64,000 bases of DNA. Origin: an uncultured Gammaproteobacteria bacterium. GTDB lineage: Bacteria; Patescibacteriota; Microgenomatia; Levybacterales; UBA12049. Positions 5,161 to 59,578 of the stretch are shown here, in pieces. Position numbers and translations under genes: made by a program. The notes under the pieces were generated by a model. It was not told the DNA's origin, made no database searches, and was given only the letters and a program-made list of their open reading frames with translations. The stretch lies in assembly GCA_964490105.1 (NCBI GenBank), contig CAZAZU010000001.1, forward strand, positions 370,361-434,360, read 5' to 3'. Positions within the stretch are counted from its first letter, which is position 1. Each line of letters begins with the position of its first letter.

Positions 5161-5208
5161 AGATTATAATTATATCTTTTGATACACTTTTATTCAAATT
5201 TTGGAGTT

Positions 5209-8693: not shown

Positions 8694-8702
8694 ATTTTAA
8701 AA

Positions 8703-9890: not shown

Positions 9891-9910
9891 ATATTAATTA
9901 TACTAATTAA

Positions 9911-33589: not shown

Positions 33590-33817
33590 TTATTTATTAT
33601 GACGGAGTTTTATTAAATTTAAAATGACTGCAAATGAAAAGAATAAAAATGCGAACCAAACAAGTCTTTGCGCCGTAAAAAACACCCACTGAGAAAAAAG
33701 AGGAACAGATATTCCGATGCATATCAAGCCTGCAATAGCAAAATACCTTGGATCTCTTTTGATTAAGAGCAGTAAAAAAACGGCAATAAACAGTAAATCC
33801 TGCGGTTTAAAATCCAT
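33590..33817 (-). CDS. Small 3-TM membrane protein (possible GtrA/DUF2304-like accessory of the adjacent polyprenyl-P-sugar synthase)
   Basis: The 75-aa protein has three hydrophobic helices. It sits immediately downstream of, and 6 nt from, the DPM1/GtrB-like GT2 gene. Confidence 0.35.
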   Translation of the reverse strand: MDFKPQDLLFIAVFLLLLIKRDPRYFAIAGLICIGISVPLFSQWVFFTAQRLVWFAFLFFSFAVILNLIKLRHNK

Positions 33818-33823
33818 TTGAAT

Positions 33824-42378: not shown

Positions 42379-43571
42379 ATGCTTTGATATAACTTGTAAT
42401 GTTTTTCAGCTATTACATCCCAAAACCTTTCTTGAGTTACATTATTTAGGGACTTATTTATACTATGAATAGTTTTTTTATCATTTAATATTCGTTCGAG
42501 CTGAGTTGCAAAAGAATTATGATCAGAGATATCAAAAGCTAGTCCAATATTATTTGATTTTACTTCTTCTGAAATGGGCTTCACATCCGCAACTATTAAT
42601 GGTTTTTTATATGCCAAAGTCATCGCAAGTGCTCCGCTAGAATTATATGAAAAAACTGCAGGAATTATACAAACCTTGGCTAGTCTATATAACTCATCTA
42701 ACTCATCTCCATTAACAAATCCAGTAATCAAAACTGATTTTGAGATTTTGCTTGTTTTAATCAATGCTTCTATCTTTTTCTTATAATAAGCGAATTCCGG
42801 GAGAACATCCCCAGCTAAGACTAATAAAAAATCTTTTGACTTAGTGTTTTCTATAAAATACTTATATTCCTTTATCAGGTAGTCATATCCTTTTCTTGGA
42901 GAAAAATATCCAAATATAAGAATTAATTTTTTATTCTTAAGAACTGGATGCTTCCTTAATACCTCCATACTCTTTGGTAGCTTATCAGGATCCTTAATTC
43001 TTCGTATACCGTGCGCGATTGTAAATACTTTTTTTGGATCACATTTATATTCATCTACAAGTCTTGTTCTTAAGATTTCAGTATGAGCAGTAACAGCGCT
43101 AGAAAATATACCAATTAATCTAAAGACATAAAAAAGAAAAACTTTGCCCAAAAATTTATTTAAAATATTATTTGCTAACCCAAAACTTTCTAAAAAGTTA
43201 GCGTTAATCTGATTTTTAGAAACGATTAAATGACAGGTAACAAAAACCTTGAATCCAAATAATCTTAAGAGTCCAATTAACCAGGGGAAAATTAGCGCAG
43301 ATCCGATTCCTCCATAGGTTTTAAATTCGTGCTGAAAGTGAATCACGTTTGGTTTTATTTTAAACACATATATTAAGATCGGTATGAAGAATAAGACTCC
43401 CTTATTCCACACTAAATCTACCTTAGGTGTTTTGCCATCTAAAACAGGCTCATTTTTTCTACCACACAAATACAGCTCGTCCCTTTTTTTCATAACTTGT
43501 AAAAATCCTTGACTTAGATCTCTTGTGTAATTGGAGTCTGGAAGAAAGTTAGCGATAAATATGAACCTCAT
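42375..43571 (-). CDS. GT4-like glycosyltransferase with hydrophobic N-terminal half
   Basis: The C-terminal VLITGFVNGDELDELYRLAKVCIIP follows the Glycos_transf_1 pattern. Confidence 0.6.
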   Translation of the reverse strand: MRFIFIANFLPDSNYTRDLSQGFLQVMKKRDELYLCGRKNEPVLDGKTPKVDLVWNKGVLFFIPILIYVFKIKPNVIHFQHEFKTYGGIGSALIFPWLIGLLRLFGFKVFVTCHLIVSKNQINANFLESFGLANNILNKFLGKVFLFYVFRLIGIFSSAVTAHTEILRTRLVDEYKCDPKKVFTIAHGIRRIKDPDKLPKSMEVLRKHPVLKNKKLILIFGYFSPRKGYDYLIKEYKYFIENTKSKDFLLVLAGDVLPEFAYYKKKIEALIKTSKISKSVLITGFVNGDELDELYRLAKVCIIPAVFSYNSSGALAMTLAYKKPLIVADVKPISEEVKSNNIGLAFDISDHNSFATQLERILNDKKTIHSINKSLNNVTQERFWDVIAEKHYKLYQSI

Positions 43572-44599
43572 TAAATTCTGTTCTCCTTAATGTAGTTTAA
43601 AACTCTCAAGAACCCTTCCTCGTTGGAAATTTTAGGCTTCCACCCAATTTCAATTACTTTCTTCGTATCAGCATAACGATTAGTAACTCCAACAGGTTTA
43701 TTAAGAATTGGCTGGACCCTAGGGTTATAACCTTCTATTTTTGATAGTAAATTAATTACTTCCAAAAAAGTTGTTAGCTTTCCGCTACCAATATTTACTG
43801 CAGTGCCATCGTTTATTTTTTTCATAATTTTAAAAAAAGCATCAATACAATCGTCAATATGAACAAAATCTCTTCCCTGTTTTCCGTTACCCCAAACCTT
43901 GATTGGATCTTCTCTCATAGCAATTCTTTTTGTTATTGCAGGAATTGGATAGGAAAAATCTTGATCCTCTCCATAGCCGGAAAATGGCCTTACGCAAGCG
44001 ATAGGTATATTGTATTTTTTTGCCGTAATTTGACTCAAATACTCTCCTGTTAATTTACTCCATCCATAAGTCATATCAGGAACTCCCAATGACTCATCAA
44101 ACTTTATAAAATCCTCTTTCAAAGCCTTTGATTTTCTTTTACCCTGCAGAACAACTGGGTATGCAGCGCTCGAACTTGCGTAAAGAACAGATTCAACATT
44201 TCTATTTTTGCGTGTTAGCCAATAAAAAAATACGGAGTCAATAGCTAAATCTTTTCCTACCAATATGGGATCCCCTTCAATCAATTCTCTACCCCCGACG
44301 ATAGAAGCTAAGTGAAAAATTTTATAAAAATTTGGTAATTCTTCTTCAGCATTCTTTCTAAAAACATCAATTACATCTGCATTTATAAAATTTATTCTTT
44401 GGGATTTATTAGAATATTCAATTAAATTTCTTTTTCTAGAATTTTTTTTATAATCTTTCCCTATCCATTTTTCTGGATGAATACCTAAGGATAAATCATC
44501 AACTATCCAAATATTGCTTTCTTGAGATAACTTACGTATTAAATTTCTGCCTACAAAACCACAACCACCTGTAATTAAAACAGCTTTTTTTGACTTCAT
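43571..44599 (-). CDS. NAD-dependent epimerase/dehydratase (extended SDR)
   Basis: LITGGCGFVGRNLIRKL and YGWSK (YxxxK) are present. Confidence 0.8.
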   Translation of the reverse strand: MKSKKAVLITGGCGFVGRNLIRKLSQESNIWIVDDLSLGIHPEKWIGKDYKKNSRKRNLIEYSNKSQRINFINADVIDVFRKNAEEELPNFYKIFHLASIVGGRELIEGDPILVGKDLAIDSVFFYWLTRKNRNVESVLYASSSAAYPVVLQGKRKSKALKEDFIKFDESLGVPDMTYGWSKLTGEYLSQITAKKYNIPIACVRPFSGYGEDQDFSYPIPAITKRIAMREDPIKVWGNGKQGRDFVHIDDCIDAFFKIMKKINDGTAVNIGSGKLTTFLEVINLLSKIEGYNPRVQPILNKPVGVTNRYADTKKVIEIGWKPKISNEEGFLRVLNYIKENRI

Positions 44600-45397: not shown

Positions 45398-46474
45398 TTA
45401 ATTTTTTATTTTAGAACTTAACCTAAATCCTAATAAATCTTGTAGAAGTCCTAGAAGTAAAAGCATATATGCAAACGATGAAACTTCATCTGAAGATAAA
45501 CCAAAATTAAAATAAATATTAACGACAGAAATGCAAACAATTATAAAAGACAGAAAATATGTTACCCTACTACTAATCTTATTTATTCTAATAGAAATTA
45601 CCCAAAATCCTAAAAGTCCAATCACGAACCCACTAACAAAAACTTCAGTAGTAAAAATATATAAGAAAATAAAAAAGAGGCATAGACCCAAAAACAAATA
45701 TCTTTTTATTTTATAACACTTAATAAAAAATCTATTTATAATTTTATATACATATTTATTTTTTTTAAAAATTTTACTAGCTTTACTCTCATTACCAAGA
45801 ATTAAAAATAATATATAGAAAATAAAAGGAAGCAGGAAGATAGAAGAAGAAATTAAAATATACTTGCTGGTAAAAACTGTAAATGCTTTATCCTTTAAAA
45901 AGCTAAGCGCTGACTGATTATTAGTAAAAATTTGCGATTTTGAGTATTTGTATTTTGATATGAATCTGACATTTTCATCCTTTAAAGTTATTGCATTTAC
46001 TTCATTACCATTTAAGGATTTAATTTCGAAGATGAAATCTTTACCAATGGAATCTTGAATCTCTAAAAACCCAAACGGGAAATACATTTTCGAACTCATT
46101 TGACCAGATCTATATTTATTTATATACTGCCAATCCTTAGAGTTAACTTCCTTTATTCTAAATACCAGTGTATCTTCATTATTAAAATCTACACGAGGAA
46201 CATTCTCTAACTTCACAGCTACAATTCCCAGATTATTTTTCTTTGCATTAAATTTAAATATTATTTTTTGATCTTTGAGTATTTTTCCTCCAGAATTATT
46301 TGGTGCGTCTTGAACATGAGAATATTCAAGAACAGAAAAATTTTTATAGGAACCGTAAATAAAAGTTGAAAATATCCAAAACATTAAAAGCGATACGGGA
46401 ATTATTACTATCCTAACTATTTTTTTCTGAAGTACTATTTTTGCTATAAGGAATATCTTTTTAAGATTTTTCAT
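45398..46474 (-). CDS. Hypothetical membrane protein (N-terminal TM, beta-rich ectodomain, C-terminal 4-TM bundle)
   Basis: Judged from hydrophobicity only. It overlaps the upstream GT-C-like gene by 14 nt, which suggests co-translation. Confidence 0.4.
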   Translation of the reverse strand: MKNLKKIFLIAKIVLQKKIVRIVIIPVSLLMFWIFSTFIYGSYKNFSVLEYSHVQDAPNNSGGKILKDQKIIFKFNAKKNNLGIVAVKLENVPRVDFNNEDTLVFRIKEVNSKDWQYINKYRSGQMSSKMYFPFGFLEIQDSIGKDFIFEIKSLNGNEVNAITLKDENVRFISKYKYSKSQIFTNNQSALSFLKDKAFTVFTSKYILISSSIFLLPFIFYILFLILGNESKASKIFKKNKYVYKIINRFFIKCYKIKRYLFLGLCLFFIFLYIFTTEVFVSGFVIGLLGFWVISIRINKISSRVTYFLSFIIVCISVVNIYFNFGLSSDEVSSFAYMLLLLGLLQDLLGFRLSSKIKN

Positions 46475-48728
46475 TTTTTTTGCTTAAATATAAGTACAAG
46501 AATCCCATCGATAGTAAAATTGCACTCATTAAAATACCAATATAAAAATATACCTGGGGTAAAAAATATAAAGTAAAAATAATATCTATGCTTCCATCCT
46601 TGTTTTGTACAAAAGAAGAACTTTGTATTTTATTTTTAACTTCATCTTCATCTACTGCCCATTTATTTCCATACGGATCAATTGGCAAGTGAGATTCATC
46701 AAATATTGGCTCTTTAAATAAGTATAAAATATCAGCTATATTACCAGATACCGTGTTATCATAAGTTTTATCACCTGGAAATATCTTCCACCCCGAATTA
46801 AAGGTTTCATAAAAGAATAATGATTCTTGTTTGTCTAAGTTTTTTATCTTAACTTTATATTTAACTGAATTTATCTTTTCAAAAGATACTTCTCCAGTTG
46901 AATCAATAACTTTTGGAGAGTTTTTCAACTTATATATTATATATTTACCAGATTCACTTCGAACCAACTCTCTATCTGAAATTGATCTGATTAGCTCATC
47001 ATCTTGAAATTCCAAGTATTCATGGTCAAACAAATACGATTTTTTGACTTCATCTGGAATGTTTCTTGTTACCATGACATAACCTACATTAACCTGTTCG
47101 AGAAGATTTAAAAGCCTCTCGTAGTCCCTCTTTCTAATAGATTCAACAACTAAGTTGGAGATGTTACTTGGATACGATGCTGTACCGCTCAGATCATTAA
47201 CTCCTGTTAGGAATTTGAATGGAGATGTTCCCACATATGCATTTTCTCCATTTTCTTCAGTTATGATAGCGTAGGAAGCAATATTTTGAGGAAATCCAAT
47301 TACATTCTCAGTCTTTGGTAGCTTGCTGCCTGTCTCTTTTGCAAAATCCAAATACTCTTTTGGAAAATGAACTGTTTGATAAATATTGTTAGTTCTCCAA
47401 ACTGGCCTATTAACTACTTGTTTTATTGGAATGAAATTAACAATAACCACAAGAATAACTAAAACTAAAAAAATAAGGTAAAATCTAAAAAATCTTTTTA
47501 TTACAAATAAACATTGCGTAAGGAAAATTGCGTAGATAAAAATGTAACCTAGCGAAAATTTATCAATAAAATTTCTGAATACAGAAAAACCTGGAATGTT
47601 ACCAAGAAATAAAAAAATGTTTTTCAATACTCCTACATTAATAGTAAAGAAATAGAGTGCAGCTAAAAATGCGATAAAGAAAAAAATGAACTTATTTTTC
47701 TCATCCATCTTTAAAACCTGTTTGTATTTAGCTAATCCGATGAATAAAACTACAACAAAAACTAAGCTGAGAGGCAGAACATAATCATAATAATTAAGGA
47801 AGACATTTTTTAATTGACCGTCGAAATCGAATAAAATCTGTCTATGATAAAAAGTTAAGAGTGGATTAATAATATTTCCAGATGCAATAGAAAGAACTGT
47901 GGGGGCAAAGCTATCTACAATTTCCTTTGAAACCGGCCTTACACCAAGACCGCCATCGCCCACATTCCTTAAAGACATCACAAATGGAAATAACCAAAAT
48001 AATTGACTAGCGAAAATAGAAAAAATAAAAACTGAAGTCTTTCTTACTCTGTTCTTAAGTGGATTTTTAACAAAAATGAGGAAAATAATAAAAGCGCTAA
48101 ATAATGGCAATAATAATCCTGCTATCCATACGACCGCATAAAATGCTAACGAAAGGAATATGCACCAGAGAACAACTTTAAAAACATCTTGGATCTCACC
48201 TCTGTGAAGGAAGCATAAGTAATAGTAAAAAATGATTGGCACTAAACATACCAACCAAACAGGACTTAAGAAATAAGCAAGATGACTCGCAGCAATTATA
48301 GGCGAGAATATGTAAAACACCGCCCCAACTATAGAAATTAAATATTCCTTACCGATAATTTCTCTAACTAATTTTTGAAAATAAATAAAACCTAAAATCA
48401 AAACCGCTGAAAATGATGAATAAGATAGTATGATTTTTGAATTTAATAAATTATCAAAAAACGTAGAAACAAGCAGCAATGGAATATATTGATGATTTGG
48501 AATATATAACGGGAGTGATGAAATATTATTCCAGGAAAATAAGGACAAACTTTTTAATAAGGCTGAGGGATAATAGTAATAGAATCTAGTATCATCCCCT
48601 CCTAAAAAAAGTCTACCATCAAACAAATAATAAGGAAGATATATTAGATATCCAATAATAATTAAATTGATTATTACAATAGCTGCGAAGTAAGCTTTTT
48701 TTCTCTTAAATAAGTTAATAATCCTCAT
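46461..48728 (-). CDS. Large polytopic membrane protein, GT-C-like (755 aa)
   Basis: About 14 TM helices. The first loop carries GGDDTRFYYYYP (DD motif). A C-terminal ~300-aa extracytoplasmic domain is closed by a final TM. Confidence 0.45.
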   Translation of the reverse strand: MRIINLFKRKKAYFAAIVIINLIIIGYLIYLPYYLFDGRLFLGGDDTRFYYYYPSALLKSLSLFSWNNISSLPLYIPNHQYIPLLLVSTFFDNLLNSKIILSYSSFSAVLILGFIYFQKLVREIIGKEYLISIVGAVFYIFSPIIAASHLAYFLSPVWLVCLVPIIFYYYLCFLHRGEIQDVFKVVLWCIFLSLAFYAVVWIAGLLLPLFSAFIIFLIFVKNPLKNRVRKTSVFIFSIFASQLFWLFPFVMSLRNVGDGGLGVRPVSKEIVDSFAPTVLSIASGNIINPLLTFYHRQILFDFDGQLKNVFLNYYDYVLPLSLVFVVVLFIGLAKYKQVLKMDEKNKFIFFFIAFLAALYFFTINVGVLKNIFLFLGNIPGFSVFRNFIDKFSLGYIFIYAIFLTQCLFVIKRFFRFYLIFLVLVILVVIVNFIPIKQVVNRPVWRTNNIYQTVHFPKEYLDFAKETGSKLPKTENVIGFPQNIASYAIITEENGENAYVGTSPFKFLTGVNDLSGTASYPSNISNLVVESIRKRDYERLLNLLEQVNVGYVMVTRNIPDEVKKSYLFDHEYLEFQDDELIRSISDRELVRSESGKYIIYKLKNSPKVIDSTGEVSFEKINSVKYKVKIKNLDKQESLFFYETFNSGWKIFPGDKTYDNTVSGNIADILYLFKEPIFDESHLPIDPYGNKWAVDEDEVKNKIQSSSFVQNKDGSIDIIFTLYFLPQVYFYIGILMSAILLSMGFLYLYLSKKNEKS

Positions 48729-49379: not shown

Positions 49380-50627
49380 TTATATACCCCCATTCATTTG
49401 TCTAAAAGCATTTGCAAATGAATTTTCCCATGTATTATGCTCTGCAAACTCCATCGCATTTTTTCTAAGTCTCAAGTATAACTTCTTATCTGAAAATATA
49501 TTTATCACTGCATCAGCAAAACTTTTTGGATCATCATGCACTCTCAACGCTGCGCCTTTTTCCGCTACTTCAACACCCAAAGGCGGAACTTGCGAGCAAA
49601 CGATAGAAATTCCAGCAGCAGCATATACGCGGATTTTACCTGCATCTGCATAATACCTTAATGACCCAGGTATATCCCTATATGGCGCTAATCCTACGGT
49701 GCAATTTCTTATAAGATCGGACATGTCTGAGCTCTTTTCAACAAAACCGTGAACATTAACAGATTTTTCAAGACCTTTTTTTTGAACAATTTTTTTAAGC
49801 CACTCAAAATCCTGTGCGGTACCTCCTATTATGTTTAATTTTGCATCCGGAAATTTTTTCATGACCAATTCCAGCGATAAAATAGCTATATCGGGACCAT
49901 TCTCTTGACCTAAGGTTCCCATATAAACCATAGAGTGATTTTCAATCTTCGAGATGGGGTTTGCTTTAATTTGATCAGGATACAAACCATTTGGCACGTG
50001 TATCACCGGTGCAGACTTTTTAGAATTAAGACCCACGCTTATTCTTGCTGGCTGCATTGCCTTAGATACATCCCATATGTAATCTGCATGCATTGCGCAA
50101 AATCGATCTAAAAATAAATAAATATTATTAAAAATCTTACCAGGATATCTATTCGGGGAATAATCAGAAACATAATAAACAACTTTCTTAACTCGTCCAA
50201 TTTTTCGCAAAAATATTGCCGCAATCGTATTGATACTCTCCAGACAAATGCAATAATCAAAAGTTGTTTTGTCCCTGAATGACCAATCAATCACTGATAA
50301 AAAATCACGTACTTTAAATATAGGCTGAGTAGTACTTGTATTAAATTTGTTAAGAAGTGGTTTTAATAAATATAAATAAAAAGAACAATTATAAGATTTA
50401 AAATCTTTATTATTCTTTGAATATACTTCAATCTTTGGCATTACATCGTCACTGCCCGGATGAGTTTGGTCAATTAGTACAAATCTTTTGGCATAAGGAA
50501 CCATAAAATCTCTCATGGGCTCTATGCTTCCATTTGTTGGCATACGCTTACCCTCTAACCATTTGGAGAAGCTAACAAAGAGTACGGTTTTACCCTCTAA
50601 TAAGCTACCGATATCTTTTTTAGCCAT
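49380..50627 (-). CDS. GT4-like glycosyltransferase
   Basis: The C-terminal Glycos_transf_1 pattern is NIIGGTAQDFEWLKKIV...VGLAPYRD. Confidence 0.6.
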   Translation of the reverse strand: MAKKDIGSLLEGKTVLFVSFSKWLEGKRMPTNGSIEPMRDFMVPYAKRFVLIDQTHPGSDDVMPKIEVYSKNNKDFKSYNCSFYLYLLKPLLNKFNTSTTQPIFKVRDFLSVIDWSFRDKTTFDYCICLESINTIAAIFLRKIGRVKKVVYYVSDYSPNRYPGKIFNNIYLFLDRFCAMHADYIWDVSKAMQPARISVGLNSKKSAPVIHVPNGLYPDQIKANPISKIENHSMVYMGTLGQENGPDIAILSLELVMKKFPDAKLNIIGGTAQDFEWLKKIVQKKGLEKSVNVHGFVEKSSDMSDLIRNCTVGLAPYRDIPGSLRYYADAGKIRVYAAAGISIVCSQVPPLGVEVAEKGAALRVHDDPKSFADAVINIFSDKKLYLRLRKNAMEFAEHNTWENSFANAFRQMNGGI

Positions 50628-51432
50628 TTGTGAGTATTTTTTTTGCTTCGTTAACCATTTGCTCTAAACCTTCTTCTAGTGATACTTTCGGAAGCCATCC
50701 CGGAACTCTTCCCATATTATCCGACGGAAGCGGATCTCTTCCTTTTAGCTTTCCAGGATAGCACTTAGCACCAGTTATTTTAGAAATCATTTCCGCAATA
50801 TCAATTATCCTTACCCATTCATAGCTGCTTGCATCAAATACAGTTTTTCTTAAATTATTTGAATTTAAAGCCATATAAAATGCACTACTCAAATCCTTTA
50901 TATGCGTAAATTGTCTCCATTCTTCGCCATTTGTCATCATCTCAATCTTTTTTGTCTTAAGTGCCTGATAGATAAAATCTGATATCACATGACTTTTTAC
51001 GCTCTCTTCCTCCATTACTCCATATGCATTCCATACCCTTACGCATCTTCCACCAAGCTGATCAGTCCAAACTTCACCAAGTCTTTTGGTTACTCCATAC
51101 ACTGTATCTACCTCTTCCGACAACTGACTTGAAATAAAAAGAAAATCTTTCATACCATCAAGCTGATCAAATACATTTCTCATGAGATCCAAGTTCCATT
51201 TTAGCTGTGTCATCTGGCGATTTGGGTCATATAAATATTTAGATCCTCCCACGTCCCAAGCTAAAAAATATACCTTATCTACATCCTTGAAGTTGAACTC
51301 ATAGGTTCTCCCATCCTCATTTTTATTTCTTTTAATATCGAAACGAACTACTTCCTCTCCTTTTTCTTCGAGAAATTTGGAGAACGGTTTTCCAATAAAA
51401 CCTTCGGAGCCAATAACTAAATTTTTTGTCAT
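50620..51432 (-). CDS. Short extended-SDR (NAD(P)-dependent sugar epimerase/reductase-like)
   Basis: Glycine-rich IGSEGFIGKPF and YGVTK (YxxxK). At 270 aa it is short. Confidence 0.55.
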   Translation of the reverse strand: MTKNLVIGSEGFIGKPFSKFLEEKGEEVVRFDIKRNKNEDGRTYEFNFKDVDKVYFLAWDVGGSKYLYDPNRQMTQLKWNLDLMRNVFDQLDGMKDFLFISSQLSEEVDTVYGVTKRLGEVWTDQLGGRCVRVWNAYGVMEEESVKSHVISDFIYQALKTKKIEMMTNGEEWRQFTHIKDLSSAFYMALNSNNLRKTVFDASSYEWVRIIDIAEMISKITGAKCYPGKLKGRDPLPSDNMGRVPGWLPKVSLEEGLEQMVNEAKKILTNG

Positions 51433-51448
51433 ATCTTCAATTACCCTA

Positions 51449-52438
51449 CTACTTTAATTTAACAACCTGCGCATGAATCCATGAATATGTTTTTGCTAAT
51501 CCATCAGCCAGCGGAGCATCTGGAGCCCATTTTAATTTTTCCTTAATCAATTTATTATCCGATTTTCTACCTCTCACCCCTGTAGGACCTGGGATATGCT
51601 TTATCTTTACTTTCTTATCTGCAATTTTCATTACCATCTCAGCAAGTTCGTTTAGTGTTACCATCTCTTCAGATCCGATATTAACTGGTCCCGTAAAATC
51701 GCTGTCCATAAGCCGCCTTATACCATTTAAGCACTCATCTATATAGAGAAATGATCTTGTTTGCTTTCCGTCGCCCCACATCTCAATTGTTCCGCCATCT
51801 TTTGCTTCAGCAACTTTCCTGCACATTGCAGCTGGAGCTTTTTCTTTTCCACCTTTCCATGTACCCTCAGGACCAAATATATTATGAAACCTAGCGATTC
51901 TGACCTCTAGTCCAAAGTTTCGATGGTACGATAAGAATAGTCTCTCTGAAAATAACTTTTCCCAACCATATTCGCTATCCGGTGCTGCAGGATATGCAGA
52001 CTCCTCAGAAAGTTTGGGATTATTAGGATCGAGCTGATTATGCTCTGGATATATGCATGCTGAAGAAGAAAAGAATATCTTCTTTGATTTTGTTTCAATA
52101 ACTTTTGGAAGTATGTTTAAATTTATTAGCGCCGAATTGGTCATTATATTAGCATCATTATTTCCCGTAAAAATATAGCCTGCTCCACCCATATCAGCAG
52201 CTAATTGATAGATTTCATCAAATCTTCGATCAAAAACCTTATCGACGAATTTCTGATCAGTTAAATTTCCGATGAGAAACTTATCAGCAGCTGTTTCACT
52301 AAATTCTGGCTTTTTGAGATCTACCCCTACTACAAAAAAGCCTTCCTGCTTCAGTTTTCTAACCAAATGACTACCAATAAATCCTCCTGCTCCACAAACA
52401 AGTGCTGTTTTAGTTGATTTTTTTTCTATTCTGCTCAT
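51449..52438 (-). CDS. Extended SDR closely resembling GDP-mannose 3,5-epimerase (GME-like)
   Basis: ALVCGAGGFIGSHL, LAADMGGAGYI, SSSACIYPE, EYGWEKL, RIARFHNIFGPEGTWKGGKEKAPAAMCRK, MWGDGKQTRSF, NIGSEEMVTLNELAEMV and IPGPTGVRGRKSDN are near-identical to motifs I remember from plant GME. Confidence 0.6.
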   Translation of the reverse strand: MSRIEKKSTKTALVCGAGGFIGSHLVRKLKQEGFFVVGVDLKKPEFSETAADKFLIGNLTDQKFVDKVFDRRFDEIYQLAADMGGAGYIFTGNNDANIMTNSALINLNILPKVIETKSKKIFFSSSACIYPEHNQLDPNNPKLSEESAYPAAPDSEYGWEKLFSERLFLSYHRNFGLEVRIARFHNIFGPEGTWKGGKEKAPAAMCRKVAEAKDGGTIEMWGDGKQTRSFLYIDECLNGIRRLMDSDFTGPVNIGSEEMVTLNELAEMVMKIADKKVKIKHIPGPTGVRGRKSDNKLIKEKLKWAPDAPLADGLAKTYSWIHAQVVKLK

Positions 52439-53392: not shown

Positions 53393-54559
53393 TTAATCTT
53401 TCTTAAAATATTCTATGGAAATTTTCTCAAAAATTTTTTTTAAGATTTGCTCATTGTCTCTCTTAGTCGCTAGAGCTAATGCGTTAGCTCTTAGCTCCGA
53501 ATATAACCTTTTATTTCCGCTAATTTTTTTAATAGCAGCGATCAATTCTTTCTCATTAGCTTTTATGTGAATTCCCGCATTATTTTCTACGATATCCTCT
53601 GCTGTTCCATTATCCCCGGAAATTATTACAGGTAATCCTAAAGCCAAATAATCCCTTGCTTTCATTGAATCCATATAATATTCACCTGAATAACTATTAA
53701 TATAAAAGGCAATACCAACTCCATGACTCGCTATAGCCTTGAAAAGCTCATCATGAGACATTGAGCTTAGAAAGAAAATATTTTTCTGTAATTTCTTTTT
53801 CTTAACTAGAGCTTTTAATTTTTTTTCCATTAACGGTAAGCAGACGAAAGTTAATTTTATTTGGGGAATTTCTTTCGATAAAACCTCAATGGAATTTAAA
53901 AGCATGGTGAACTCGCTAATTGTTCTTCTTGCGGAAACAACTATTAACTTATGGGGATCACCGGAATTTGATACTAGTTTTTTTGTACGTGAAATTGCTG
54001 GAGAATTAGGGACCCAAATTAATTTCTCGCTTGGAATCCCATCGCTTCTTCTTATATCCAAAATTCGCCTTGACACTGCTAGGATTAGGTCTGAATTTCT
54101 GTTAGTTAATCTATCTAGAAAATGATAAAAGTTATTTAACAAAAGATTACCATATCTTGTCTTAGTGTAATCAGGATTAAAGGTAATAAACATCTTTGCT
54201 TTATATATTTTCTTAAGTACCAAACCCCAGAATGCGTTTAAGGGATCTTCACCAATATAAACAATCTTTGACTTCCTATAATACTTTAGAATCAATCTAA
54301 ATGTTATCCAACCTTCAAAAATTCGCGCACCAATTTCTCCAAAATATATTTTGTGCTCAATTATTTTATCTGTCTTATTTACTCCGTCAGAATAAGTCAT
54401 GAAAGTTATTCCTTCGGCGTATATAGAATGCCTTATGAATAAATAGGGCTGCTTTTCCTTTTCGAGGTAATATATAAGAGCATGGCCGGGGCCCGGATTA
54501 TCAGTTTTATTTTTACCTATTGCTGTATGACATACTACGCAATAATTAATTTTCTTCAT
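53393..54559 (-). CDS. GT4-like glycosyltransferase
   Basis: The C-terminal domain with LALGLPVIISGDNGTAEDIV fits a GT-B layout. Confidence 0.6.
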   Translation of the reverse strand: MKKINYCVVCHTAIGKNKTDNPGPGHALIYYLEKEKQPYLFIRHSIYAEGITFMTYSDGVNKTDKIIEHKIYFGEIGARIFEGWITFRLILKYYRKSKIVYIGEDPLNAFWGLVLKKIYKAKMFITFNPDYTKTRYGNLLLNNFYHFLDRLTNRNSDLILAVSRRILDIRRSDGIPSEKLIWVPNSPAISRTKKLVSNSGDPHKLIVVSARRTISEFTMLLNSIEVLSKEIPQIKLTFVCLPLMEKKLKALVKKKKLQKNIFFLSSMSHDELFKAIASHGVGIAFYINSYSGEYYMDSMKARDYLALGLPVIISGDNGTAEDIVENNAGIHIKANEKELIAAIKKISGNKRLYSELRANALALATKRDNEQILKKIFEKISIEYFKKD

Positions 54560-55457
54560 TCTTCATTAACCTTAAGCCTTCTCTCACAGAAACTGGATCC
54601 ACATCTAGAAGTTTTTTTATTTTATCTATGTTAAAACATGTATTTTTTGGTCTCGGTGCAATATTAGGAAAATAATCACTTGAAACTGGTGTCAGAAGTT
54701 TACTATTAAAATCAAAAACAGATGATAATTTTTTTGCAAACTCAAAACGGGTTATACATTCTGGCCCTGCTACATTATAAATACCTCTATCTTCAAGATT
54801 ATTATTCTTATTTAACAAAATCTTCCATATGATTTTTGCTGCATCTTGTGCATAAAGAAAATTACTATAAATGTCATCAACTACTTTAATATCTTTTCCT
54901 TTTTCAAGTTCACTAATCATCCATGTAGCAAGATTCGATCTTTCATGCTTACTATTCCAACCATACATAGTAATTAAACGAATAATTGAGTATTTATTCA
55001 ATCTCGTTTTCATTTCCTCTTCAGCCTGCAATTTCGTCTTGCCATAATAGTCAATTGGGGATGGTCTGCTTTTTTCAGAATACGGATGTCTTATTCCATT
55101 GAAAACGGCATTTGATGAAATATAAATAACCGACGAATTAATCTTCTTGGATTCTTCTATTATATTTATTGTTCCGTTAACATTAGTTTTCCAGGCTTCT
55201 TTCTTGTGAAGTTCACAATAATCTACATTCCCGATTGAAGCAGCATGAACAATTACATCTGGCTCATACTGACGAAGAAGTATCCCAACATCTTTCCTTT
55301 TAGTAATATCTAACTCAAGATATTTTATGTTTTTAGCTTTTAATTTATCTCTATTGTTGTTTAAAAATGTAGCAAAAACAAAATAATCATTAGGAATTTC
55401 ATTTAAGAAATATTTTCCCAGCAAACCTTTTCCGCCTGTAAAGAGAACTTTTTTCAT
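54546..55457 (-). CDS. RmlD-type NAD(P)H-dependent 4-ketoreductase (dTDP-4-dehydrorhamnose reductase family)
   Basis: LFTGGKGLLGKY, PDVIVHAASIGNVDYCE...AWKTNVNGTINI and YISSNAVFNG follow the RmlD substrate-binding-domain pattern. Confidence 0.65.
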   Translation of the reverse strand: MKKVLFTGGKGLLGKYFLNEIPNDYFVFATFLNNNRDKLKAKNIKYLELDITKRKDVGILLRQYEPDVIVHAASIGNVDYCELHKKEAWKTNVNGTINIIEESKKINSSVIYISSNAVFNGIRHPYSEKSRPSPIDYYGKTKLQAEEEMKTRLNKYSIIRLITMYGWNSKHERSNLATWMISELEKGKDIKVVDDIYSNFLYAQDAAKIIWKILLNKNNNLEDRGIYNVAGPECITRFEFAKKLSSVFDFNSKLLTPVSSDYFPNIAPRPKNTCFNIDKIKKLLDVDPVSVREGLRLMKNEEN

Positions 55458-55469
55458 TATCTAAAGTGC

Positions 55470-56285
55470 CTATCTTTTTTTAAAAACAATTTCCCAATCA
55501 TAATATCCAAGTATTGGTATGCTAATCCTCCTTATTTGTTTAAGTAAATTATTGTTATTAAAAAAGTTACTATTATTAATAGATAACCTTCTTAATACAA
55601 AGTCCATAACAGGAAACCAAATCTGCTGTTTTTTAGTTTCAATAATTATGAATCTTTTATTGTCAATTAAGCTTAGGAGTTCATCATCTTTTTCATATTC
55701 TCGTAAATGTGTTGAATCTAATACCCACTTCCCCTTCCTCCTGTAAAAATACCATCCATACCATTTTTTGAATACAGTGGTCACATATGCAGTTCCATTT
55801 TTCTTAAGCACCCTATGAATAGTATTTATCATTTTTATATCGTCAACATGCTCAATAACCTGAGTAGAAATAAAGAAGTCAATAGATTTATCCTTAACTG
55901 TCTCAAGATCCTCTGCGCTATCTACACGAGCACTTATTGATTTGTCCAATTTATTAATATTTGCAATTCTTCTTTTGGATAAATCTATAGCAATGATTTT
56001 TTTATTCTTTAAATAATTACCTTTTATCAAAGCGTCAAGAAGTATTCCGTCACCACATCCACAATCAATAATCGAAGAGAATTTAGTTTTTTTTAAATAC
56101 TTGGCTAAAAGCGTCGGAACCTTCATGCCATAGAATTGCACAAACTTTTCTGAATGCCTTTCTAAGTTATTATTTGTGCTATTTAGTTTTTTATTTTTAT
56201 TGTTAATTATTTTATTTTTTGTCATATTTAGCTTGAAAAAAATTATAGACCATTCCGCAAAATCCCGCAAAATACTCAACTGCAC
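55470..56285 (-). CDS. Class I SAM-dependent methyltransferase (annotated start probably too far upstream)
   Basis: Motif I is IIDCGCGDGILLDAL. The first ~52 codons are low-complexity and overlap the GT2 gene by 74 nt, so the internal Met (MKVPTLL, near 56131) is the more likely start. Confidence 0.68.
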   Translation of the reverse strand: MQLSILRDFAEWSIIFFKLNMTKNKIINNKNKKLNSTNNNLERHSEKFVQFYGMKVPTLLAKYLKKTKFSSIIDCGCGDGILLDALIKGNYLKNKKIIAIDLSKRRIANINKLDKSISARVDSAEDLETVKDKSIDFFISTQVIEHVDDIKMINTIHRVLKKNGTAYVTTVFKKWYGWYFYRRKGKWVLDSTHLREYEKDDELLSLIDNKRFIIIETKKQQIWFPVMDFVLRRLSINNSNFFNNNNLLKQIRRISIPILGYYDWEIVFKKR

Positions 56286-57072
56286 GCATCACAACAAAAA
56301 ATATAAAAACTAAAGGATCTTTGGCAAACAATCTCCAATTTCTTAGATAAGATCCTTTAATTGGATTGTAACTTGATAACCATGACTTTGGTCTTTTATT
56401 TAGGTAATTTACCATTTCTCTTCCATACATGAAGCGCTTCTTAAATAGCTTAATGATCGACAAATTGCCTTCGTTATGCATAACTACGCTTTTCGCTCTG
56501 CCAATTCTAAAATTTTTTTCTTTTAATTTTTGAGATAAATCGATATCATCCCCGCCTGCACCCAACGATAAATCAAAACCACCTATGCTATGCCAAACGC
56601 TTTTTTTAAAAAAACGTGGACTCTCTACATTATCATCTCCCCAATAACAGCGCCTTTCTAATTGCTTTGCCTTTGCCCAAATACCAATTCCAAAAGAATC
56701 CTCTCTCAATATCACAGCATCCACACCTTTCTCACACAATTCAACTGCCTCATTGATTAGATTTTTAGACAATTCCATATCGGCATCTAGCCAATAAACA
56801 TATTCTCCCCTTGCCTTCTTCATCCCGTAATTTCTTTTGTGAGGTGCATCGAAAATTCCGCTACTAACCTTGGGAACATATGTATAAAATTCACATTTAT
56901 ACTTATCGGACAATTCTTTTACATTATCTGTAGATTTTCCATCAACTATTATTATTTCTATATTAGGATACGTTTGAAGCCTGATATGCTTTAAGCAACT
57001 ATCAAGAAAGGCAGCTGAATTTCTGGTCGGGATTACAATGGATACTAATTTATAATTATTGTTCTTTTTCAT
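56212..57072 (-). CDS. Glycosyltransferase family 2
   Basis: VSIVIPTRNSAAFLDSCLKHI...VDGKSTD and WLDADMEL (DxD) identify GT2. Confidence 0.8.
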   Translation of the reverse strand: MKKNNNYKLVSIVIPTRNSAAFLDSCLKHIRLQTYPNIEIIIVDGKSTDNVKELSDKYKCEFYTYVPKVSSGIFDAPHKRNYGMKKARGEYVYWLDADMELSKNLINEAVELCEKGVDAVILREDSFGIGIWAKAKQLERRCYWGDDNVESPRFFKKSVWHSIGGFDLSLGAGGDDIDLSQKLKEKNFRIGRAKSVVMHNEGNLSIIKLFKKRFMYGREMVNYLNKRPKSWLSSYNPIKGSYLRNWRLFAKDPLVFIFFVVMRAVEYFAGFCGMVYNFFQAKYDKK

Positions 57073-57147
57073 TTCTGTTCAGCATGGTCCATATTATCAC
57101 ATAAATTGCGCTTATTTAAAGAATTAATTCGACTAGACTTTGCATTG

Positions 57148-58314
57148 CTATGAAAGAATTCGAATTATTTTATTAATATCTTTCTTTGATAATTCGGGAT
57201 TATTTCCAATATAAAATCCTTGATCATGCGCAATGCCCGCATTTTTATTATATACACGACTTTTAATATATTTACTAAAGAATGGCTGTCTAGTTAAATC
57301 ACCGCCCACTATTGGTCTAGTTTCAATTACATTTTCACACTTTCTTAGAAGATTATCCCTTATCCTACCTGATTTACATATAATAGGAATTGCGAAGTTT
57401 GAAACAAAATCTATATGATCGTACTTTAGCTGATAATAATTTTTATTATCATAAATAGATTCAGCGATTGTTAAGAAATTGCTGTTCCGTCTATTATTAA
57501 TTTCGTCTATATATTTTATTCCAATATTACCCACAAATCCATTTATTTCTGTTGGCCTCAAGTTATATCCTAAATCATAAAATGTATATCTTGAGTAAAA
57601 AGTAGAATTAACCTTAAATTTTTTTCTAATTTGGTCCTGATTAGCAAAATTAAGATTTCTGTCCCATCCATGCGCTCTTACCATACATAACATATCCATC
57701 AACTCTTCATCGTCAGTACAAACTACCCCGCCTTCAATAGTTGAAAGATGATGCCCAACATAAAAAGAGCAAGTACTTGCTAATCCAAAATTACCTAACT
57801 TTGTCCCCTTATATATTGTCCCTAAAGACTCACAATTATCTTCAATAAGAATTATTTTATTTTTTTTGCAAATACTTTGTATATTATCCAAATCACTGCA
57901 AAATCCCAAAGCATTCGTAACAAATAAAGCTTTAAGCTTTTTTTTAGCAATTACAGCATTAAGTTTTTGACTTGAAATATTGAGGGTATCAATTTCTATA
58001 TCAATTGGGACCGGGTTTAAACCTAACTGAATCAAGGGCATAACATTCGTACTCCAAGATAATGCTGAAAAACCTACATTATCTCCCTTCTTTAGCCTCC
58101 GTAAATTAAGTAAAGATTGAATTAGCGCCAAATTTGCAGAACTTCCGCTATTAACAAACGCACAATATTTTCTTTCTTGATACTTCGCAAATTTTTTTTC
58201 GAATTTCTCACACTCTGAACTGAAGCTTAACTTTTTGGACTTCTTTATAAATCTTGCTAGTTCTCTTTTGACACTCTCCTCTTTGTAGAATGTCGACTTA
58301 ATTAACGGAATCAT
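57148..58314 (-). CDS. DegT/DnrJ/EryC1-family PLP/PMP enzyme, ColD-like (GDP-4-keto-6-deoxymannose 3-dehydratase-type; His-His replaces the Schiff-base Lys)
   Basis: NSGSSANLALI, KKGD...SALSWSTN, LIEDNCESLGT, CSFYVGHHLSTIEGGVVCTDDEEL, VRAHGWDRNL and TRPIVGGDL track ColD. The position normally occupied by the PLP lysine (SFHxxKxxxxGEGG) reads SFYVGHH, the hallmark of PMP-dependent 3-dehydratases such as ColD and E1. Confidence 0.65.
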   Translation of the reverse strand: MIPLIKSTFYKEESVKRELARFIKKSKKLSFSSECEKFEKKFAKYQERKYCAFVNSGSSANLALIQSLLNLRRLKKGDNVGFSALSWSTNVMPLIQLGLNPVPIDIEIDTLNISSQKLNAVIAKKKLKALFVTNALGFCSDLDNIQSICKKNKIILIEDNCESLGTIYKGTKLGNFGLASTCSFYVGHHLSTIEGGVVCTDDEELMDMLCMVRAHGWDRNLNFANQDQIRKKFKVNSTFYSRYTFYDLGYNLRPTEINGFVGNIGIKYIDEINNRRNSNFLTIAESIYDNKNYYQLKYDHIDFVSNFAIPIICKSGRIRDNLLRKCENVIETRPIVGGDLTRQPFFSKYIKSRVYNKNAGIAHDQGFYIGNNPELSKKDINKIIRILS

Positions 58315-58465
58315 ATGGTTTTCTAATTCTTAAAAGAAACTATACCTAATTCATGGCAGAAGTGAACCTGATATTGCCCTACTTTTATCAGTCTATATAT
58401 TAACACAAGAAATTAGTTTTTACTGAGCAGTATTATAGTTTTGCTTGTTATTGAGCTTTAAATTA

Positions 58466-59578
58466 TTAACTTAATGCAAATTCTAAAAACCTATTCGTAG
58501 TATTAGACCACGTGTGTTTCTTTCTTTCACTTATAGCTCCTTTTTGTAATTTATTGTATAAATTTTCATCCTGCAATATTTTTTGAATATTTTCTGAAAG
58601 ATTTTCTGGATTATTTTCCTGGCAAATTTTTCCATTAACATTGTCCTTAACGATGTCTTTTAGACCCGGGACGTTATAAACTACTGCGGGAGTACCTCTC
58701 GCTCCTGCTTCGTGTACGGTTAAGCCCCACCCCTCCTTAACTGATGGAGCAATTAAAATATGTGCTCTAGTTAATAACTCTTCTTTCTTTTCCTCAGTAA
58801 CATAGTCAAAAAACCGAATGTTTTCTTTAAGATCCGAATCCTTCACAAGCCTATGAAGCTCAACTACAAACTCAGCCTCTCCCCGGCCTATTATCCAAAG
58901 CATGATATCTGGAATGTTTTTCTTAAGGATCTCAACTGATTTAATCGCGTCAACTACTCCTTTTGTTTTAGAAAGACGGGAAACGAAAATTAATGTTTTT
59001 TCCTTTTCTTTTTTAGGAAGACTACTAACCATTCTTGAATTTGAACCCATGGGAATTACTTTTACTTGTGATTTAGTAAAACCGTTCTTTTCAATTTCTT
59101 CTTTTGAAGATTCTGAAATAGTAACAACTGGTATTTTTTTATAAAAGCTAGGATAAATTTTTTCAATTATTTTTCCAAATATGTTAAATGGAAAACCTAC
59201 CGCGATATTCCAAAGATCTCCTGCAACTTCACAAATTAATGCAACTTTTTTTTCCTTAACATAAAACGGTGTAAAAAAGGGAATTCCGTGCACCTCGTCA
59301 ATTACCAAATCAACTTTCCCCTGAAAATCTCTCTTATACAGTTTGTAAGCAGCAAAATGCACTGATCTAAATAATCTTCTTGCATCAGGATCTCCTGATC
59401 TAATTATTTTAACGCCTTCAATTATTTCTTCTTCTTTAGCGCCTTTAAACTTCGCACTAATCTGCGTTACAACGTGTCCTTTTTTTACAAATCCAGATGC
59501 TAATTCCTGAGTCAGAATCTCAGCTCCCCCGGATGAAGGATTTTTAATATCTCTCCAATTTAAAATTAATATTTTCAT
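58466..59578 (-). CDS. Glycosyltransferase family 4
   Basis: EGWGLTVHEAGARGTPAVVYNVPGLKDIV is the GT4 C-terminal signature. Confidence 0.8.
   Translation of the reverse strand: MKILILNWRDIKNPSSGGAEILTQELASGFVKKGHVVTQISAKFKGAKEEEIIEGVKIIRSGDPDARRLFRSVHFAAYKLYKRDFQGKVDLVIDEVHGIPFFTPFYVKEKKVALICEVAGDLWNIAVGFPFNIFGKIIEKIYPSFYKKIPVVTISESSKEEIEKNGFTKSQVKVIPMGSNSRMVSSLPKKEKEKTLIFVSRLSKTKGVVDAIKSVEILKKNIPDIMLWIIGRGEAEFVVELHRLVKDSDLKENIRFFDYVTEEKKEELLTRAHILIAPSVKEGWGLTVHEAGARGTPAVVYNVPGLKDIVKDNVNGKICQENNPENLSENIQKILQDENLYNKLQKGAISERKKHTWSNTTNRFLEFALS

Follow-up and report, generated by a model that had tools for sequence, protein, structure and literature searches.

The window analysed here, a 64-kb stretch of one contig that apparently comes from a Patescibacteria (Microgenomates/Levybacteria-like) bacterium, contains a glycan locus with roughly 18 glycosyltransferases and the following features relevant to a predicted dideoxy sugar pathway:

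57148-58314, minus strand: colD-like gene (388 aa; catalytic H188, then H189), a predicted Fe-S-free, PMP/histidine-type NDP-4-keto-6-deoxyhexose 3-dehydratase

58315-58465, minus strand: upstream intergenic gap of 151 bp, which may hold the promoter and 5' leader of colD

57073-57147, minus strand: downstream gap of colD, 75 bp, with no sign of a conserved element

54546-55457, minus strand: RmlD-family SDR, on the strand of colD and two genes downstream of it

20331-21404, minus strand: ManC-like mannose-1-phosphate guanylyltransferase, consisting of the nucleotidyltransferase part only, with no PMI domain

The colD-like gene is an open, ATG-started reading frame with exactly these bounds, the strand of which went unstated in the initial annotation. 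BLASTP against all 53 window ORFs of at least 150 aa identified no paralogs of its product. The protein matches the Pfam family PF01041 (DegT_DnrJ_EryC1) over residues 20-387 (201 bits, E 4e-59) and contains the motif SFYVGHHLSTIEGG, which includes G187-H188-H189, so the His-His pair proposed earlier for the Schiff-base site of this DegT enzyme is indeed present. Among solved structures, the top matches by sequence are entries of ColD (WbdK), the GDP-4-keto-6-deoxy-D-mannose 3-dehydratase of E. coli O55 and Yersinia pseudotuberculosis (PDB 2gms, 2r0t, 3b8x and 3gr9; 197.5 bits and E 3e-57 for 2gms), followed by E1 (3bcx, 160 bits) and by 9wvy, a putative NDP-4-keto-6-deoxyglucose 3-dehydratase (105 bits). 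Ordinary aminotransferase structures score at most 86 bits (ArnB 74, PseC 73). Full-length E. coli O55 ColD is 35% identical to the protein over 377 aa (E 9e-63), and the AF2 model (pLDDT 81, pTM 0.83) has ColD chains as its best structural matches, with TM scores of 0.73-0.81. In a neighbour-joining tree with 500 bootstraps, the protein falls within a ColD clade that excludes E1 (91% bootstrap). Judged from its sequence, the protein resembles characterised ColD more than it does E1 or transaminases, in keeping with the original assignment as a ColD-like dehydratase.

The similarity to ColD comprises length (388 aa), fold, the absence of an Fe-S motif and the identical positions of H188-H189, whereas overall identity is only 35% and the residue before the catalytic histidine is Gly instead of Ser187. 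Three observations fix the position of the histidine. The query pair H188-H189 aligns with H188-H189 of ColD; engineered ColD entries differ from wild type exactly there (SNH in 3b8x, SKH in 2r0t, NKH in 3gr9); and the H188 column, which corresponds to the catalytic His188 of ColD, holds the lysine when true DegT aminotransferase paralogs are aligned with the family. Both the replacement of the PLP lysine by histidine and ColD as the closest enzyme are confirmed; neither a conserved lysine nor a closest match to aminotransferases was seen. The set used to assess conservation consisted of the best 120 homologs in public databases, which are 65-87% identical to the colD-like protein. All 120 have His at the Schiff-base column and none has lysine, and the S56-G57-S58 loop, D159, S183, H188, R219, N251 and R333 are invariant throughout. 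The same residues are common to E. coli ColD and all Gmd-linked relatives, with query N251 and R333 corresponding to ColD N248 and R331, and D159, S183 and R219 carrying the same numbers in both. In ColD, we take the SGS loop, D159, S183, R219, N248 and R331 to be cofactor and substrate contacts. Such roles were reportedly described by Cook, Thoden and Holden in 2006 and by Cook and Holden in 2008.

The DegT/DnrJ/EryC1/StrS aminotransferases, such as ArnB, PseC and GDP-perosamine synthase, share the fold and the PLP/PMP scaffold with the query, but their Schiff-base lysine takes the position of H188 in the query. We consider it very improbable that the protein is an ordinary sugar aminotransferase or an inactive relic of one. 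The RefSeq name of genuine ColD and the absence of partner genes nearby could be read in that way; however, aminotransferases score far lower, the lysine is missing from every close homolog, and 120 homologs of 65-87% identity in which all catalytic residues are invariant indicate strong purifying selection. As to names, ColD-type enzymes are without a dedicated NCBIfam model, RefSeq calls even the genuine E. coli O55 ColD a 'DegT/DnrJ/EryC1/StrS family aminotransferase', and JGI names for homologs are of the 'CDP-sugar E1 dehydrase' type. The His188 column and the absent Fe-S cysteines cleanly separate ColD-type enzymes from both mislabels.

E1 (RfbH/DdhC, CDP-6-deoxy-L-threo-D-glycero-4-hexulose 3-dehydrase) and SpnQ resemble the query in fold, in having His for Lys and in PMP-dependent C3 deoxygenation. 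Unlike the query, in which three of the four cluster ligands are absent, they contain a [2Fe-2S] cluster and depend on a reductase, and the motif is also described in a review (PMC8987622). Counted on the alignment, R, L and I take the places of the E1 ligands C251, C253 and C261 in the colD-like protein, and the equivalent of the fourth, C193, is kept as C161 and is present in ColD as well. The list of E1 ligands reportedly goes back to Agnihotri et al. in 2004. An E1/SpnQ-type 3-dehydrase with a [2Fe-2S] cluster and an electron-transfer partner might be suggested by the best NCBIfam match, RfbH (235 bits), by pipeline names such as 'CDP-6-deoxy-D-xylo-4-hexulose-3-dehydrase' and 'E1' for relatives (JGI), and by several cysteines (C35, C149, C161, C199 and C313) that are conserved across the CPR/DPANN clade and that as a set of five are absent from E. 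coli ColD. The RfbH score is, however, far under the family cutoff of 423 bits, at 388 aa the protein has the length of ColD and falls 49 residues short of E1 (437 aa), it groups with ColD in the tree, and no Fer2, FAD/NAD-binding, or ferredoxin- or flavodoxin-reductase-like gene is present among the window ORFs scanned with Pfam. With the missing ligands, this makes an E1-type enzyme highly unlikely. Sequence, phylogeny, predicted fold, the active-site residues and the missing Fe-S motif together support the prediction of a PMP-type, ColD-like sugar 3-dehydratase with His in place of Lys, as opposed to a transaminase.

As such, the enzyme would be a dimeric, fold-type-I (DegT family) sugar 3-dehydratase with pyridoxamine 5'-phosphate (PMP) as its cofactor. 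PMP and an NDP-4-keto-6-deoxyhexose would form a ketimine at the C4 keto group of the sugar, after which H188, in the place that the Schiff-base lysine takes in aminotransferases, would remove the C4' proton. The C3 hydroxyl would then be expelled, and hydrolysis of the enamine would yield an NDP-4-keto-3,6-dideoxyhexose and ammonia. Finally, PLP would be converted back to PMP with L-glutamate, and neither an iron-sulfur cluster nor a reductase partner would be required; the mechanisms of ColD and of E1/SpnQ are compared in a review (PMC8987622).

This raises the question of which sugar is made. The initial annotation had taken manC and several SDR genes of the same operon as signs of a pathway to a GDP-activated 3,6-dideoxy sugar such as colitose. 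The manC part holds: the product of 20331-21404 matches Pfam NTP_transferase and ManC_GMP_beta-helix as well as TIGR01479 (228 bits, E 2e-67, residues 3-350), is 30% identical to E. coli CpsB, and is predicted to supply GDP-mannose to the locus. This ManC-like GDP-mannose pyrophosphorylase is the sole hexose-activating enzyme in the window, the other nucleotidyltransferase being a GlmU N-terminal domain; ManB was not found in the window. The remaining partners do not fit the proposed roles. Searches by tblastn and BLASTP with Gmd, Fcl, ColC and RmlA-D from E. coli K-12 and O55 returned just the ManC-like gene and generic SDR similarity. No Gmd is encoded in the window or in the flanking ~10 kb on each side (TIGR01472; tblastn with E. 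coli Gmd); the best TIGR01472 score among the window SDRs tested is 30 bits, and tblastn gave no match in the window or in the loci L001, L038 and L040. The latter two, which extend the window by 10 kb upstream and downstream, add nothing but cell-division genes, phage-like genes and a GalE-like SDR. Likewise, neither a ColC/Fcl-family enzyme nor an RmlC-like or other cupin epimerase is encoded in the window or in 10 kb (for ColC/Fcl, ~10 kb) beyond each end, and the best window BLASTP match to O55 ColC (24% identity, 62 bits) reflects generic SDR similarity.

Of the five SDRs in the window, one is a homolog of GDP-mannose 3,5-epimerase, one an RmlD-family reductase and one a GalE-like epimerase; the other two are a generic and a truncated SDR. 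All five lack the Thr/Ser-x-Glu signature of 4,6-dehydratases. The 'Fcl-like' SDR at 51449-52438 was considered as ColC, but is the homolog of GDP-mannose 3,5-epimerase (343 bits to Arabidopsis GME); together with the ManC-like gene, it gives the locus a GDP-sugar setting. The protein encoded by 37892-38923 was rejected as the missing 4,6-dehydratase: its motif, SSMSVYG, is without Glu, and it is GalE-like (4zrm, 169 bits). A 65%-identical homolog of it directly follows the colD-like gene in two related loci (L006 and L008). In the same two loci, colD is preceded by a homolog of 45398-46474, which was rejected as an enzyme, being a multi-pass membrane protein with no family match. The RmlD-family SDR at 54546-55457 matches Pfam RmlD_sub_bind (178 bits), TIGR01214 (171 bits, under the cutoff of 224) and, in the PDB, the dTDP-4-dehydrorhamnose reductase 3sc6 (93 bits), and we infer that it is the best window candidate for the ketoreductase that would act at C4 to complete the dideoxy sugar.

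The colitose pathway is thus not established. Its canonical form (ManC, Gmd, ColD and ColC), with Gmd located elsewhere, a locus SDR serving as C5-epimerase/C4-reductase and L-colitose in the glycan, is a tentative reading that we regard as possible but not the most likely. A ColD-type enzyme and a ManC-like gene are present, and sister lineages have gmd-colD-fcl/colC cassettes. Against it stand the lack of a ColC/Fcl-family protein in the window, the GDP-mannose 3,5-epimerase identity of the 'Fcl-like' SDR, the lack of a cupin epimerase, and the RmlD-like, plain 4-reductase type of the SDR nearest to colD; with no C5 epimerisation, the product would stay D-configured. The layout also differs from that of E. 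coli O55, in which colD adjoins colC near gmd, manB and manC, whereas here only the manC-like gene lies in the window.

More information on the substrate comes from relatives. The nearest outgroups of the Microgenomates subclade that includes the query are 48-56% identical proteins from CPR, DPANN and Flavobacteria, encoded in uncharacterised gmd-colD-fcl cassettes and having nearly all invariant residues in common with the query:

L014: Vogelbacteria
L015: Minisyncoccus archaeiphilus, a cultured species
L016 and L017: Woesearchaeota
L018: Saccharibacteria
L019: Halpernia

The subclade and this Gmd-linked clade group together with 100% bootstrap. Adding three SAR11 loci (L022-L024, 36-40% identity) gives nine more distant relatives, and in all nine the colD-like gene has a true gmd next to it or within ~2 kb, with a product 47-67% identical to the E. 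coli enzyme. An Fcl/ColC-family gene accompanies it in four (46-52% identity to E. coli Fcl, 38-43% to O55 ColC), and a fifth, L016, has a more distant family member (30-32%). In the SAR11 loci, a 262-aa SDR directly follows gmd-colD, and its best window match is the 54546-55457 protein (29% over 145 aa). By contrast, gmd is found within 10 kb in none of the 12 well-flanked loci of the query's own subclade (60-87% identity); the subclade loci L041-L044 likewise lack it. Because of this, the substrate assignment rests on phylogenetic bracketing and residue conservation and not on local context. The residues are well preserved: the subclade keeps 45 of the 48 columns that are invariant in Gmd-linked enzymes and E. 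coli ColD, and, of 109 columns without variation among the six nearest Gmd-linked proteins, only 3 show fixed differences in it. At the level of the alignment, there is no active-site remodelling in the subclade.

The same chemistry could act on another substrate, either a GDP-6-deoxy-4-keto-heptose or a dTDP-, CDP- or UDP-4-keto-6-deoxyglucose. ColD homologs of C. jejuni are active on GDP-6-deoxy-4-keto-D-lyxo-heptose (PMC10440746), and gmd is linked nowhere in the subclade. Enzymes of dTDP-sugar type, among them an FdtA fusion and RmlC-like proteins, are encoded nearby in some subclade loci. Genes of kinds that typify dTDP-sugar pathways (FdtA-type, aminotransferase and C-methyltransferase) occur in L041, L043 and L044, and the window itself has the RmlD-like gene. 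We nevertheless think that such a substrate is unlikely, given that the window has no heptose-pathway, RmlA/RmlB or RfbF/RfbG genes, that residues invariant in Gmd-linked enzymes are kept, and that the subclade is nested among Gmd-linked lineages. The C. jejuni HS:5/HS:11 C3-dehydratases of the 3,6-dideoxyheptose pathway are, by description, ColD-family enzymes with glutamate-recycled PMP and a GDP-linked, manno-configured 4-keto-6-deoxy sugar as substrate (PMC10440746). There, however, the substrate is a heptose and a C5-epimerase and C4-reductase follow.

Since gmd adjoins colD in the outgroups, 45 of 48 columns are kept and the ManC-like enzyme is the only hexose activator, a GDP-activated substrate is indirectly supported, and this part of the initial annotation stands while its colitose part is not supported in the form proposed. 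We consider it probable, on sequence-based grounds, that the protein is a ColD-type, Fe-S-free PMP dehydratase, with GDP-4-keto-6-deoxy-D-mannose as its most likely substrate. This would be derived from GDP-mannose made by the ManC-like enzyme, through a Gmd whose gene would lie beyond the ~84 kb examined. A locus SDR, for which the RmlD-like 54546-55457 protein is the best candidate, would then probably reduce the product, and one of the glycosyltransferases may transfer the sugar into a cell-surface glycan. Family membership, active-site residues, the missing Fe-S motif and the Gmd linkage of sister lineages are direct observations; substrate, reductase partner and final sugar are all inferred here, colitose being one possibility among others. 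A more speculative and rather improbable alternative is that the Microgenomates lineage has uncoupled ColD from both Gmd and ColC in a non-canonical route. In one version, ColD and an RmlD-type reductase might produce a D-configured, tyvelose-like GDP-3,6-dideoxyhexose; to our knowledge, D-configured 3,6-dideoxyhexoses are so far known only via the CDP pathway. In the other, the genome might be without any Gmd, and the 4-keto substrate might arise in a yet undescribed way.

3,6-Dideoxy sugars are best known as antigenic determinants in enterobacterial O-antigens. The present analysis predicts a sugar of this class on the surface of a CPR bacterium whose genome contig measures ~0.8 Mb, and surface glycans of CPR episymbionts may mediate host attachment. 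A literature text search for colitose and Patescibacteria gave no paper with both among the top matches. Biochemically, the enzyme fits as expected into a well-understood family and will not surprise a specialist.

The gaps flanking the colD-like gene had also attracted attention in the initial annotation. Their sizes (75 bp and 151 bp) are correct, but they are not the only sizeable ones, as the glycan locus also has gaps of 234, 116, 109, 85 and 83 bp. The composition of the gene (GC 0.308, GC3 0.244) is inside the range of the window and gives no support to the recent insertion that had been suggested, which was rejected on this basis. Promoter-like elements had been proposed for both gaps, and sigma-70-like sequences can be found in each: TTCACT-16-TATAGT at 58366-58339 in the 151-bp gap, and TTTAAA-16-GATAAT with a TG extension at 57120-57093 in the 75-bp gap. 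Since the region 56800-58800 has 13 such matches vs. 9.5 +/- 2.9 in shuffles, they are not above chance level. No terminator-like site on the minus strand lies inside the 75-bp gap. A structured RNA or riboswitch in the 151-bp gap was rejected, with no Rfam match and no stable fold (z +1.2). Compared with the locus of an 87%-identical relative (L004), the 75-bp gap is 57% identical with a 20-nt indel. The 151-bp gap is 82% identical, rising to ~93% in the proximal 100 nt, vs. 58% for third codon positions of colD, which in this one comparison hints at the separate regulation proposed for the gene.

The ORF at 57148-58314 on the minus strand is a single ATG-started reading frame of 388 codons, and the plus-strand frame over the same interval contains many stops. 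Its product belongs to the DegT_DnrJ_EryC1 family (Pfam, 201 bits) and contains SFYVGHHLSTIEGG, including G187-H188-H189. The initial annotation had described a DegT-family protein with His-His at the position of the PLP lysine, and this description holds: in the family alignment, true DegT aminotransferases (paralogs taken from related loci) have their Schiff-base lysine in the H188 column. Its proposal of a ColD-like 3-dehydratase is likewise upheld. In a search of all sequences in the PDB, the top matches are the four ColD entries (197.5 bits, E 3e-57), followed by E1 (160 bits) and a putative NDP-4-keto-6-deoxyglucose 3-dehydratase (105 bits), whereas true aminotransferases score at most 86 bits (ArnB 74, PseC 73). 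Identity to ColD of E. coli O55:H7 CB9615, the source of our reference colD and colC genes, is 35% over 377 residues (E 9e-63). H188-H189 align to H188-H189 of ColD, with the same residue numbers in both, and engineered ColD variants in the PDB are altered at the same positions (3b8x, H188N; 2r0t, H188K; 3gr9, S187N/H188K). Assignment as a ColD-like dehydratase is borne out in all tests run and is well supported.

H220 of E1 also aligns to H188, and the E1 cluster cysteines C251, C253 and C261 are replaced by R, L and I, which places the protein in the Fe-S-free ColD type. In this type the enamine intermediate is hydrolysed, PMP is recycled by glutamate and a reductase is not needed (PMC8987622). 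The S56-G57-S58 loop, D159, S183, H188, R219, N251 and R333 are invariant in 120 close homologs and unchanged in E. coli ColD and all relatives examined (N251 and R333 are equivalent to ColD N248 and R331). Apart from H188, we take these to be the residues with structural roles in ColD, from work of the Holden laboratory. An AlphaFold2 model (pLDDT 81, pTM 0.83) matches ColD chains best (TM 0.73-0.81; E1 0.74), a comparison that discriminates weakly because the whole DegT family is structurally close. The best NCBIfam match is RfbH (E1), at 235 bits far under the cutoff of 423. NCBIfam has no ColD model, and the ColD class is systematically mis- or under-annotated as a result. RefSeq labels the experimentally characterised ColD (5701-6867 of the E. 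coli O55:H7 locus, L037) only as 'DegT/DnrJ/EryC1/StrS family aminotransferase', and JGI names CPR homologs CDP-sugar E1 dehydrase. Separately, C35, C149, C161, C199 and C313 are invariant or nearly so in the CPR/DPANN ColD clade, including its Gmd-linked members; E. coli ColD has only C161, and the five do not match the E1 Fe-S motif.

All ORFs of at least 150 aa in the window (GC 33.7%) lie on the minus strand, and the gene is part of a very large glycan-assembly locus:

1-14 kb, minus strand: cell-division/cell-wall cluster (ftsA, murG, ftsW, mraY, GlmU N-domain, murA, mur ligases, ftsI, mraW)
17611-64000 and beyond, to ~74 kb in L038 (sequence past the 64 kb end), minus strand: glycan-assembly locus, >50 kb on one strand
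19664-20329, minus strand: initiating Bac_transf sugar transferase
20331-21404, minus strand: ManC-like gene
40591-42378, minus strand: NodU-like carbamoyltransferase
27189-30416, 34779-36815, 38929-40590, 45398-46474 and 46461-48728, minus strand: five large membrane proteins with no Pfam family

The locus also encodes ~18 glycosyltransferases (GT1/GT2/GT4 and two PMT_2 (GT-C)), a flippase-like protein, two hexapeptide acyltransferases, FkbM and two other methyltransferases, and five SDRs.

A colitose-type pathway had been predicted, whose Gmd and ColC were to be sought among the SDR genes of the locus; neither family is encoded in the window, which therefore does not support the pathway claim. 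The window SDRs tested reach at best 30 bits against TIGR01472, tblastn with E. coli Gmd gives no match, and the Thr/Ser-x-Glu dehydratase signature is present in 0 of the 5 window SDRs. The ColC/Fcl family is likewise unrepresented among the window ORFs, the closest of which to O55 ColC has 24% identity and 62 bits. An RmlC-type cupin was not found in the window either, and a hidden one is ruled out since the intergenic gaps are too short. Upstream, a further 10 kb of sequence (reaching about 74 kb in window coordinates) add only a GalE-like SDR, and the 10 kb downstream add ftsZ, an integrase and small phage-like genes. The same holds for the subclade formed by the protein and its 60-87% identical Microgenomates relatives, in which the gene varies in position inside similar giant glycan loci: none of the 12 well-flanked loci (L004-L007, L009, L010, L012, L021, L041-L044) has gmd within 10 kb, so that the missing linkage is a lineage-wide pattern. 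The gene adds a new member, so far uncharacterised, to the known ColD family; in this CPR lineage it is unlinked from its classical partners. Three subclade loci (L041, L043, L044) encode an FdtA-hexapeptide fusion (FdtA-type ketoisomerase) and a DegT aminotransferase, and L041 and L044 also a TylC3-like C-methyltransferase (Methyltransf_13/14). The substrates of all three enzyme types are NDP-4-keto-6-deoxy sugars. As no 4,6-dehydratase lies within 10 kb of the colD-like gene in these three loci, the early pathway steps seem to be generally encoded elsewhere in subclade genomes, and the absence of gmd counts for less.

The family is large, with at least 7,978 proteins at E <= 1e-20 among the 8,000 scored. 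The top 120 have 65-87% identity and lengths of 387-418 aa, with only three outside 387-396 aa, and the closest carry Levybacteria/Levyibacteriota and Patescibacteria labels; from these labels, the source is probably a Microgenomates-group CPR bacterium. Five third-party MAG records (L004, L006, L007, L012, L021) are titled 'uncultured Gammaproteobacteria bacterium', with loci syntenic and 62-87% identical to Levybacteria/Patescibacteria loci, and these labels are probably wrong. A one-genome-per-species scan gave 31 loci, which were searched with E. coli K-12 Gmd, Fcl, ManB/C and RmlA-D. True Gmd (47-67% identity to E. coli Gmd) is adjacent or within ~2 kb in every more distant relative, namely Vogelbacteria, the cultured Minisyncoccus archaeiphilus, two Woesearchaeota, Saccharibacteria and Halpernia at 48-56% identity and three SAR11 genomes at 36-40%. 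Four of these Gmd-linked relatives have an Fcl/ColC-family gene (46-52% to Fcl, 38-43% to ColC), and L016, from the CPR/DPANN/Flavobacteria set, has a fifth, more distant one (30-32%); such loci have the classical gmd-colD-colC arrangement. In L014, from Vogelbacteria, a second DegT-family protein (15691-16932) likewise has its Schiff-base column occupied by His instead of Lys (SFYGSHIING). Its grouping with E1 is loose (16% bootstrap), and it may be another dehydratase type.

The subclade is tight (92% bootstrap) and joins the Gmd-linked CPR/DPANN/Flavobacteria sequences at 100%; the clade that also takes in E. coli ColD and SAR11 stands apart from E1 (91%). It keeps 45 of the 48 columns invariant across all ten Gmd-linked or characterised GDP-sugar enzymes, and where the six nearest Gmd-linked proteins share 109 invariant columns it differs consistently at only 3 (F185Y, Y322L, F326C), and thus gives no sign of binding-site remodelling. 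The most economical candidate substrate is GDP-4-keto-6-deoxy-D-mannose. GDP-6-deoxy-4-keto-heptose is a known alternative for this class, being used by C. jejuni ColD homologs (PMC10440746), but heptose-pathway genes were not found at the window locus. The local setting is GDP-based, judging from the ManC-like gene, which the initial annotation had correctly named as a locus partner, and a GDP-mannose 3,5-epimerase homolog. The ManC-like guanylyltransferase is the sole hexose-activating enzyme in the window, the second nucleotidyltransferase being the GlmU N-terminal domain.

The five SDRs of the window are assigned as follows:

51449-52438, minus strand: GDP-mannose 3,5-epimerase homolog (343 bits, E 2e-101 to Arabidopsis GME, 2c59)
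54546-55457, minus strand: RmlD-family reductase (family and structure-database matches)
37892-38923, minus strand: GalE-like 4-epimerase (sequence match)
43571-44599, minus strand: generic extended SDR (sequence match)
50620-51432, minus strand: truncated SDR of 270 aa without the usual catalytic Ser region, directly downstream of 51449-52438

The RmlD-like reductase, encoded two genes downstream of colD and on its strand, is the likeliest candidate for the downstream step. Among window proteins it is the best match (29% over 145 aa) to the short SDR that comes after gmd-colD in the SAR11 cassettes. Reduction by a plain 4-reductase, with C5 left unepimerised, would lead to a D-configured 3,6-dideoxyhexose rather than L-colitose, so the final sugar is not fixed as colitose, an identity we consider rather doubtful. 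The epimerase homolog, which in NCBIfam has only a weak Fcl-like match, together with the ManC-like gene predicts GDP-L-galactose or GDP-L-gulose in the glycan.

Gaps of 151 bp upstream and 75 bp downstream flank colD, the sizes previously noted; they are not the only sizeable ones, since the glycan locus has others of 234, 116, 109, 85 and 83 bp. Promoter-like elements had been reported in both gaps, and the number of matches in 56800-58800 does not exceed chance (13 vs 9.5 +/- 2.9 expected); a TTCACT-16-TATAGT pair lies at 58366-58339, inside the upstream gap. Against the syntenic locus of the 87%-identical relative (L004), identity is 82% in the upstream gap (~93% over its proximal 100 nt), 80.5% in colD overall but 58% at third codon positions, and 57% in the downstream gap, which carries an indel. 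On this single comparison, a promoter or leader upstream of colD may be under constraint; the upstream gap matches nothing in Rfam and forms no stable RNA fold. The suggested recent insertion of the gene leaves no compositional sign, as its GC (0.308) and GC3 (0.244) are inside the window's spread.

Elsewhere in the locus, a stand-alone 177-aa ORF (33056-33589, minus strand) consists of a GT4 N-terminal domain alone and adjoins the 234-bp gap (33590-33823), the largest of the glycan locus. Separate homologous ORFs of ~176-178 aa are present in L006, L012 and L021, so the split appears to be a conserved arrangement rather than a recent pseudogene. The GTG-started ORF at 55470-56285 shares 74 bp with the upstream GT2 gene (56212-57072); since the public assembly calls a product of 251 aa here, the true start is probably an internal ATG. 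Just past window position 1, after ftsA-ftsZ, 4535-9913 of the adjoining sequence (L040) contains a phage-type integrase, a Terminase_2 fragment and small unannotated ORFs, and may be a prophage remnant.
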